Assembly (NCBI GenBank): GCA_937934445.1
Contig: CALGZM010000066.1
Coordinates: 152,335-216,334 of the forward strand
Direction of reading: 5' to 3'
Length of the DNA stretch: 64,000 bases
Source of the DNA: an uncultured Cloacibacillus sp.
GTDB taxonomy: Bacteria; Synergistota; Synergistia; Synergistales; Synergistaceae
The notes under the pieces are model-generated. The model worked only from the letters and a program-made list of their open reading frames with translations. It was not told where the DNA came from and made no database searches. Position 1 is the stretch's first letter. Each line of letters opens with the position of its first letter. Positions 15,813-15,900 of the stretch are shown here, one piece after another. The translations under genes were made by a program, and so were the position numbers.

Positions 15813-15830
15813 ACGTAAGCAAAATTACGT
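15813..15830. repeat. Right 18-bp inverted repeat (ACGTAAGCAAAATTACGT) of the candidate invertible switch.
   Basis: Perfect inverted repeat of 15497-15514, bounding a roughly 298-bp AT-rich segment. Confidence 0.85.
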
Positions 15831-15883
15831 GTCGTTGAAACGGTTATGATATGTTATATTTGTAGAAATTAGTTGGAGCAGAT

Positions 15884-15900
15884 ACGTAAGCAAAATTACA
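15884..15900. repeat. Third copy (16/18 identical) of the right inverted repeat. It overlaps the stop codon of the recombinase gene.
   Basis: ACGTAAGCAAAATTACA in the same orientation as 15813-15830. It covers the recombinase's last codon and TAA stop (15896-15898). Confidence 0.75.

Follow-up and report, generated by a model that had tools for sequence, protein, structure and literature searches.

A recombination site within the recombinase stop codon at an invertible, predicted promoter segment of a two-partner secretion locus in Synergistota gut bacteria

Introduction

Promoter segments of about 300 bp that are inverted by an adjacent tyrosine recombinase are already known, chiefly as the fimS and the Bacteroides Tsr types. 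In the fimS switch of E. coli (FimB/FimE), as in the FimX/HyxB and the Salmonella STM0716 T1-antigen switches, a tyrosine recombinase gene lies beside a promoter-bearing invertible segment of about 300 bp, the recombinase gene is transcribed toward the switch, and a surface or adhesin operon is controlled. Only one of the two orientations of fimS joins its terminator to fimE (PMC9993118; PMC11294581). Bacteroides switches, of which the BT1927 S-layer switch is an example, consist of a promoter element of about 250-300 bp between inverted repeats of about 20 bp, with one or more Tsr-type tyrosine recombinase genes adjacent (PMC4611039). In the R64/IncI shufflon, the recombinase Rci acts on more than two short sfx sites near its own gene, which allows nested and alternative inversions, and inversion is favoured over deletion between sites of the same orientation (PMC11852207, PMC11850598).

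The Xer recombinases (XerC/XerD, XerA and XerH) act at a single dif site in chromosome-dimer resolution. The dif site has two inverted arms around a 6-bp centre, in an 11-6-11 layout.

Here we describe a switch in a 64-kb stretch of DNA, referred to as the window, whose protein homologues place the organism in the Cloacibacillus / Candidatus Caccocola group of the Synergistota. The locus shares with fimS the neighbouring tyrosine recombinase gene, its transcription toward the switch, the length of the invertible segment and the kind of operon that would be controlled. The fim inverted repeats, however, are 9 bp long and clear of the recombinase stop codon, whereas the sites described here are 18-bp cores of 6-6-6 layout and a third site is present. 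Two recombinases with directional bias serve the fim switch, in contrast to the single Xer-like enzyme of this locus, which is unrelated to the FimB subfamily; termination at fimE depends on Rho, but the candidate terminator found here is intrinsic-like; and the operon that would be regulated is a two-partner secretion (TPS) operon in the Synergistota. With the Bacteroides switches the locus has in common that the host is a gut anaerobe and that both orientations are detectable in metagenomes (PMC4611039), but the Bacteroides repeats (GTTAC N7 GTAAC) are intergenic, no extra nested site has been described for them, and phylum and cargo differ. The shufflon shuffles coding segments for the PilV C terminus rather than a promoter, and its sfx sites, in which one arm is conserved, are asymmetric; the sites of the present locus, by contrast, have palindromic arms, and no product of the third site was seen in contigs of the window lineage. 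Xer recombinases are the closest matches in sequence and structure, and their sites share the two inverted arms around a 6-bp centre, but here inverted pairs of sites flank a segment with a predicted promoter and the outcome is inversion.

Searches of the literature turned up no account of this system, no inverted repeat embedded in a stop codon, and no published phase variation in gut bacteria of the genus Cloacibacillus or the Synergistota. The unusual features are the location of a site arm inside the last codon and stop of the recombinase gene in two genera, a variable number of sites (2-4), the giant TPS exoprotein as cargo, and the phylum. We consider it about 75% probable that the locus is an inverton of a TPS operon in which the site on the recombinase stop codon is ancestral and most likely still bound by the recombinase, while a second, more recently gained proximal site recombines with the distal site to toggle the promoter.

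Results

Three copies of an 18-bp site at the switch

A repeat finder and a mismatch-tolerant pattern search agreed that the window contains three copies of an 18-bp site and no more. The distal site, L (15497-15514; ACGTAATTTTGCTTACGT, ACGTAA-TTTTGC-TTACGT), lies on the side of the transporter gene tpsB and matches without mismatch in the minus-strand sense. The proximal site R1 (15813-15830; ACGTAAGCAAAATTACGT, ACGTAA-GCAAAA-TTACGT) is a perfect inverted repeat of L, and the second proximal site, R2 (15884-15901; ACGTAAGCAAAATTACAT, ACGTAA-GCAAAA-TTACAT), carries one mismatch, a G to A change at 15900. A preliminary description of the locus had noted a third copy of the inverted repeat at the recombinase stop codon, with 16/18 identity at 15884-15900. 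The copy is real and better than claimed, since identity is 17/18 over 15884-15901; the repeat finder returned 16 contiguous identical bases (15884-15899).

Each site is composed of 6-bp arms that are palindromic to each other (ACGTAA/TTACGT) and an asymmetric 6-bp spacer (TTTTGC/GCAAAA), so that the polarity of a site is set by its spacer alone. The spacers of L, R1 and R2 are identical. R1 and R2 are direct repeats with a site-to-site distance of 71 bp, and with L they provide what characterizes a shufflon, namely at least three compatible sites for one recombinase in one locus.

Because the third copy is short, it could in principle be a chance similarity or an assembly artefact, and nothing else speaks for such an origin. 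With up to three mismatches allowed, 0.03 matches were expected by chance against the three found, and three matches occurred in 0/100 shuffles. The same three-site layout was present in 10 independent public contigs of the window lineage and in a relative with a 94%-identical recombinase (L029), and is therefore not an artefact of assembly. Orthologous sites exist in every relative, and in relatives the orthologue of R2 is a proven inversion endpoint. These observations already refute the idea of chance or artefact, to which we assign practically no weight, and R2 is a genuine recombination-type site.

At 15440-15457, 57 nt outside L and with the same polarity, lies a degenerate site-like sequence, GTTTATTTGTTTTTACGT; it matches L at 11/18 positions and could be the remnant of a fourth site, in parallel with the doublets of distal sites in the sister species described below. 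A scan of metagenome contigs for the 16-mer ACGTAAGCAAAATTAC, a pattern too short for a collection of that size, listed at least 120 single chance matches, none of which was homologous to the locus by blastn.

The invertible segment and the two-partner secretion operon

Between L and R1 lies segment A (15515-15812), a 298-bp invertible segment with a predicted promoter. The promoter-like site, TTGAAT-17-TAAAAT (15527-15555, minus strand), was predicted from the consensus; it is located near L and points through L toward tpsB. The relative L029 has a promoter-like site of the form TTGATT-17-TAGAAT. The window presumptively represents the ON state, with the predicted promoter aimed at tpsB. Segment A also contains a terminator-like hairpin on the plus strand (15600-15661; -23 kcal/mol, followed by T6, or U6 as RNA), the region of which is well conserved in L029, and a weaker hairpin at 15718-15736. 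Segment A and the invertible segment of the sister species were not alignable (about 48% identity in either orientation), and promoter homology across species was therefore unusable.

The two proximal sites are separated by segment B (15831-15883), a 53-bp spacer that was constant in all contigs seen. Segment B is predicted to be unstructured as RNA (-1.5 kcal/mol), and R2 likewise folds weakly (-1.5 kcal/mol). Local alignment of B with A, with the flanks and with the invertible segments of relatives found no significant similarity. The idea that B resembles the end of a former promoter or carries an extended -10 element was dropped, as the alignments were no better than those of shuffles. An Rfam search of 15200-16000 returned no RNA family.

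The first gene downstream of the switch encodes TpsB (13644-15314, minus strand), a ShlB/FhaC-type transporter (Pfam ShlB, 4e-26; POTRA_2, 3e-12). It is followed by the gene for TpsA (4221-13613, minus strand), an exoprotein of 3130 aa with an N-terminal TPS secretion domain (2.6e-18) and GLUG motifs. Among strains with identical TpsB and recombinase (L001, L002 and L153), the called length of TpsA ranged from 1899 to 3239 aa, with some of the calls truncated by contig ends, which suggests that this exoprotein is repetitive and highly variable.

Three tandem repeats of 36-38 nt (15330-15441) are present in the leader of tpsB, in the interval from L to the start of the gene, and each has a small hairpin (CGGTAC...GTACCG). 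The repeat is present as a single copy in L029, whose leader is only 46% alignable, so the copy number varies. One scaffold, L168, diverges completely 70 nt beyond L, inside the leader repeats (scaffold position about 2230-2302, corresponding to about 15427 of the window); possible causes are an insertion, a difference between strains and a chimeric scaffold.

The recombinase and its stop codon

The gene adjacent to the switch (15896-16735, minus strand) encodes an Xer-like tyrosine recombinase of 279 aa as called, within an open reading frame at 15896-16744. In an exact-protein look-up, the 279-aa called form, which starts at the fourth codon, matched public proteins, and the 282-aa translation of the full frame had no match. 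The protein belongs to the tyrosine recombinases (Phage_integrase superfamily), as indicated by matches to Phage_integrase (PF00589; 1.2e-22; 81 bits, cut-off 27.1) and Phage_int_SAM_1 (PF02899). Alignment with 8 homologues showed R138, K162, H225, R228, H251 and Y260 to be invariant, and we take these to be the candidate catalytic residues of the family motif R-K-H-R-H/W-Y. The best NCBIfam matches were XerA (121 vs 220 bits), XerD (111 vs 330) and XerC (110 vs 335), all under their cut-offs; the protein is Xer-like only and does not qualify as a XerC, XerD or XerA equivalog. Its closest relative of solved structure is XerD (PDB, 6e-17). By sequence, the protein could be assigned to neither the FimB/E nor the XerC/D families.

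The recombinase ends in K-L-V-M-stop, with the TAA complementary to 15896-15898 and the methionine codon complementary to 15899-15901. The outer arm of R2 (TTACAT, or ATGTAA as read in the gene) is consequently the last codon and the stop, as the preliminary description had stated. The site and the recombinase co-occur strictly in all 5 lineages surveyed, including the site on the stop codon, and the adjacent recombinase is the probable catalyst of inversion.

Inversion in the window lineage

The sample of the window lineage was small, with 10 contigs covering the recombinase side (same or 99%-identical recombinase) and 9 covering the TpsB side. R2 was followed by B and then R1 in 10/10. Segment A was in the forward orientation in L001-4 and L168, and inverted immediately after R1 in L005, where 59/59 bases matched the reverse complement. 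Both orientations coexist in the sample ERZ1311791, which yielded L005 with A inverted and L152 with forward A adjoining L. Three de Bruijn contigs (L006, L007 and L009) traversed R2 and B and stopped at the last base of R1, and contig L154 started at the first base of L. Neither a junction nor a break at R2 was seen in any of the 10 contigs (0/10), none of which had A or its inverted form, A', directly after R2, and inverted B, B', did not adjoin L in any of the 9 contigs that cover the L side (0/9). The use of alternative site pairs that defines a shufflon was accordingly not found in this small sample. The hallmark of an inverton, that is, both orientations with precise junctions at the repeats, was found in the window lineage (L005 vs L001-4), in the sister species and in Caccocola.

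In the window lineage, the pair of sites seen to flip is R1 and L, and recombination between R2 and L is absent or at least several-fold rarer; assemblies report majority states, in which products of R2 and L below about 10-20% of the population would be invisible. The comparison of junctions at 15883/15884 and 15812/15813, proposed in the preliminary description as a check for inversion at the third copy, gave the following in the small set of public contigs: flipping was seen only at 15813-15830, and none at 15884-15901.

The exact junction sequences allow ON, OFF and any R2-dependent states to be counted in gut metagenome reads. R1 with A forward reads CAACGACACGTAATTTTGCTTACGT joined to GACGAGAAT, R1 with A inverted reads CAACGACACGTAATTTTGCTTACGT joined to TGTACGTTG, and R2 followed by B reads TTGTAATGTAATTTTGCTTACGT joined to ATCTGCTCC. 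Products of R2 and L, or a deletion between R1 and R2, would be recognized by TTGTAATGTAATTTTGCTTACGT joined to TGTACGTTG or to GACGAGAAT, and B' adjoining the TpsB flank by CGAGGTACGTAATTTTGCTTACGT joined to ATCTGCTCC. The junctions of ATGTAATTTTGCTTACGT with TGTACGTTG and of GGTACGTAATTTTGCTTACGT with ATCTGCTCC, if abundant, would mark R2 as a main endpoint.

The stop-codon site is an inversion endpoint in relatives

Contigs encoding identical or related recombinases (75-94% identity) were collected and their sites and orientations tabulated; a search of genome contigs with the recombinase alone had returned two loci only. In each of the 5 related lineages, the recombinase stop codon carried a site, and its offset was always the same. 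The lineages were Caccocola faecipullorum (recombinase 85% identical, ATGTAATTCCGCTTACGT, 2 sites), Caccocola faecigallinarum (75%, ATATAATTTTGCTTATGT, 2 sites), a sister Cloacibacillus species (89-90%, ATGTAATTTTGCTTA[C/T]GT, 2-4 sites), the P0117 lineage (84%, ATATAATTCTGCTTATGT, 3 sites) and the L029 lineage (94%, ATGTAATTTTGCTTACGT, 3 sites). The last residue of the recombinase was methionine or isoleucine (ATG/ATA), and in the alignment the outer arm was always A-T-[G/A]-T-A-A. An equivalent of R1 was absent from the relatives with two sites.

In C. faecipullorum, a 275-bp segment abuts the stop-codon site and was in one orientation in 6 contigs and in the other in 2 (L024 and L027). In the sister Cloacibacillus, L015, L019, L020 and L021 on the one hand and L156-165 on the other are exact reciprocal inversion products, and 14 contigs were ON and 7 OFF. 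At the stop-codon site of this species, S1, the sequence ...TTACGT followed by TGCCTG... in one orientation becomes ...TTATGT followed by TAAATAAG... in the other, and the arm of the partner site changes from ACATAA to ACGTAA. This reciprocal exchange of arms maps the crossover to the interval from position 3 to position 16 of the 18-mer, in line with strand exchange in the spacer. Two short contigs of the sister species end inside S1, the signature of a fork in the assembly graph. Identical recombinase proteins (P0019 and P0118) were encoded in both orientations.

Relatives also differ in the number of sites. The sister species has one to three copies of the distal site, 40 bp apart. Two of its contigs, L016 and L017 (about 3335-3750), have four sites, with a module of site, 22 nt and site at each end, in inverted orientation, to give 58-bp composite inverted repeats; this layout agrees with what would be predicted if the stop-codon site had recombined with the second of three distal sites. 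In the P0117 lineage, L170-L172 (about 1232-1300) have a second proximal site 41 bp from the stop-codon site, with the spacer TTCTTC against TTCTGC in the other two, and this independent doublet seems to be in decay. Four lineages had site doublets with spacings of 40-71 bp. The preliminary description had proposed nested or alternative endpoints with more than two promoter states. Judged from the multi-site layouts of L016/L017 and L170-172, alternative endpoints are evidently real in the family, but the window lineage itself shows only inversion between R1 and L. The range of 2-4 sites offers a natural series for studying how extra sites arise and whether switching is tuned.

These layouts bear on the question of whether R2 is an active alternative crossover site today, in which case the window lineage would have four configurations (B A, B A', A' B' and A B'), with two ON and two OFF arrangements that differ in their TPS leaders and recombinase 3' UTRs. 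R2 and L share their spacer, the outer arm of R2 carries a single mismatch, inversion in relatives proceeds with arm pairs that are just as imperfect (ATGTAA with ACATAA), and R2 is conserved in L029. The L016/L017 layout, moreover, is just what inversion between a stop-codon site and an outer distal site would leave, with the 22-nt module and the inner site carried across. Yet only B followed R2 and B' was never next to L in the contigs described above, and in three samples de Bruijn contigs passed through R2 and broke at R1, whereas contigs of the sister species break at the stop-codon site itself. We therefore regard present-day crossover at R2 as unlikely, and favour R1 as the proximal endpoint in current use.

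In an OFF contig of the sister species, L015, the stop-codon site and its new flank form a 10-bp hairpin with a T-rich tail at the end of the recombinase gene (3331-3366). By its predicted fold this would be an orientation-specific, terminator-like structure built by the site itself. A corresponding site-made hairpin was considered for R2 in the window and rejected because of the weak fold (-1.5 kcal/mol).

Origin and present role of R2

Since the stop-codon site is found in every relative and is a working endpoint in two related lineages, R2 is probably the ancestral working site, and R1 with the 53-bp segment B would be a lineage-specific addition. That R1 was gained here and not lost elsewhere is the parsimonious reading of an unrooted set of five lineages. 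L016/17 and L170-172 have proximal doublets too, so doublets may be older or recurrent. The roles assigned in the preliminary description, which had treated the copy at 15884-15901 as the extra one, are thus reversed: the relatives point to 15884-15901 as ancestral and to 15813-15830 as the newcomer.

Comparison of the window with L029 indicated that the sites have outlasted their surroundings. All three 18-mers were identical, while B was 75.5%, A 71.5% and the TpsB leader 46% identical; L was conserved at 18/18 positions between flanks of 46-72% identity, and the bases directly after R2 were among the most diverged. Coding sequence accounts for six bases of R2, and the probability that the other 12 survived at the divergence of B is 0.755^12, or about 0.03, which is modestly significant. 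R2 thus appears to be under purifying selection.

This comparison can be set against the possibility that R2 is a functionless relic of the insertion or duplication that produced B and R1, persisting as it is half coding and has had too little time to decay. Six of its 18 bases are indeed constrained by the methionine and stop codons, no R2 junctions were seen, and the conservation test gave a p value of only about 0.03. On the other hand, the 12 non-coding bases are identical in L029 although the adjacent B has diverged by 25% and the sequence just beyond R2 by more than most, and the spacer of R2 is still fully compatible with that of L. A mere relic is, in our judgement, quite improbable.

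A further possibility is that R2 no longer recombines and has been kept as an accessory or regulatory site to which the recombinase binds, where it might shape the R1 synapse, block antisense transcription from the flipped promoter or autoregulate the 3' end of the recombinase gene. Perfect conservation of R2 between diverged flanks, the lack of crossovers at R2 in contigs of the lineage and the doublets 40-71 bp apart in four lineages would all fit such a role. The doublet member with a spacer mismatch in the P0117 lineage, however, looks more like decay than like a selected accessory site, and species with two sites function without a doublet. We hold a purely accessory role to be possible but somewhat doubtful.

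Most likely, R2 is still bound by the recombinase, whether as a rare alternative endpoint or as an accessory site, since it is conserved in L029, has the spacer of L and belongs to a family whose members invert with equally imperfect arms. For Cre or FLP, a spacing as short as 71 bp would be close to or under the reported looping limit. R1 and R2 have been kept together in two diverged lineages, which suggests that excision between them is disfavoured.

Discussion

A model of the switch and its effect on the recombinase gene

The model that we favour is drawn from comparative sequence evidence. The Xer-like recombinase encoded beside the switch would recognize 18-bp cores of the form A[C/T][G/A]TAA ... 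TTA[C/T][G/A]T around a 6-bp spacer and exchange strands within the spacer. In the ancestral design, the proximal site would lie in the end of the recombinase gene, with the last codon (ATG/ATA) and the TAA as its outer arm. The window lineage would then have gained a second, perfect proximal copy, R1, 71 bp from R2 and with B between them. Inversion of the 298-bp segment A between R1 and L would direct the predicted promoter either at tpsB (ON, as in the window) or back at the recombinase gene (OFF). After inversion, the recombinase transcript would meet the hairpins of segment A, and transcription from the promoter would run antisense into the recombinase gene.

It would be intuitive to suppose that recombination at a site on the stop codon edits the protein, and the preliminary description had expected the last codon and the stop to be replaced by inversion at R2. 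This reading is corrected by the relatives, in which the same protein (P0019 or P0118) is encoded whichever way the segment lies. Because the crossover falls in the spacer and the outer arm ATGTAA stays with the gene, no inversion should alter the recombinase or its stop codon, and the 3' UTR alone would change. The design is a compact one, in which the last codon and stop of the recombinase gene form one arm of the recombinase's own recombination site.

A second statement of the preliminary description, that the recombinase transcript reads into the switch, agrees with our predictions. In the present orientation, no terminator-like structure was predicted on the recombinase-sense strand from the stop codon to tpsB. 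The hairpin at 15600-15661 is on the recombinase-sense strand only once A is inverted, and by prediction this hairpin with its U6 tract could act like the fimS terminator. A recombinase 3' end that depends on orientation, as for fimE, is plausible given the predicted strand placement of hairpin and U6.

Extra switch states in the window lineage are likewise plausible. They might take the form of a small promoter shufflon with a common flip between R1 and L and rare inversions between R2 and L, then between R2 and R1, that yield the four configurations, although we think this complete scheme improbable. Were it true, B would move to the TpsB side and the promoter segment would come to lie directly against the recombinase stop codon. 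The states would then have distinct TPS leaders, recombinase 3' ends and antisense exposure, the switching rate would be both heritable and switchable, and the family would owe the doublets of its four lineages to selection, so that they would not be debris. Under the simpler inverton that we favour, the locus is a phase-variable TPS adhesin or exoprotein locus in Synergistota gut bacteria, documented from natural populations.

The flanking region

Upstream of the recombinase gene lies gpmA, which encodes a phosphoglycerate mutase (16864-17613). A second gpmA copy is located about 28 kb away on the same strand (45064-45813) and is 99.2% identical. Three Logan contigs (L006, L009 and L004) start at one and the same base (about 16924), which falls within the 3' end of gpmA, 189 nt before the recombinase start; an assembly-graph fork that the duplication of gpmA created is the probable cause. 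The second gpmA copy has radical-SAM and GntR genes as neighbours (L167), and in the sister species the same genes directly flank the recombinase-TPS module. Their placement differs between the species, which indicates that synteny has been rearranged around the duplicated gpmA.
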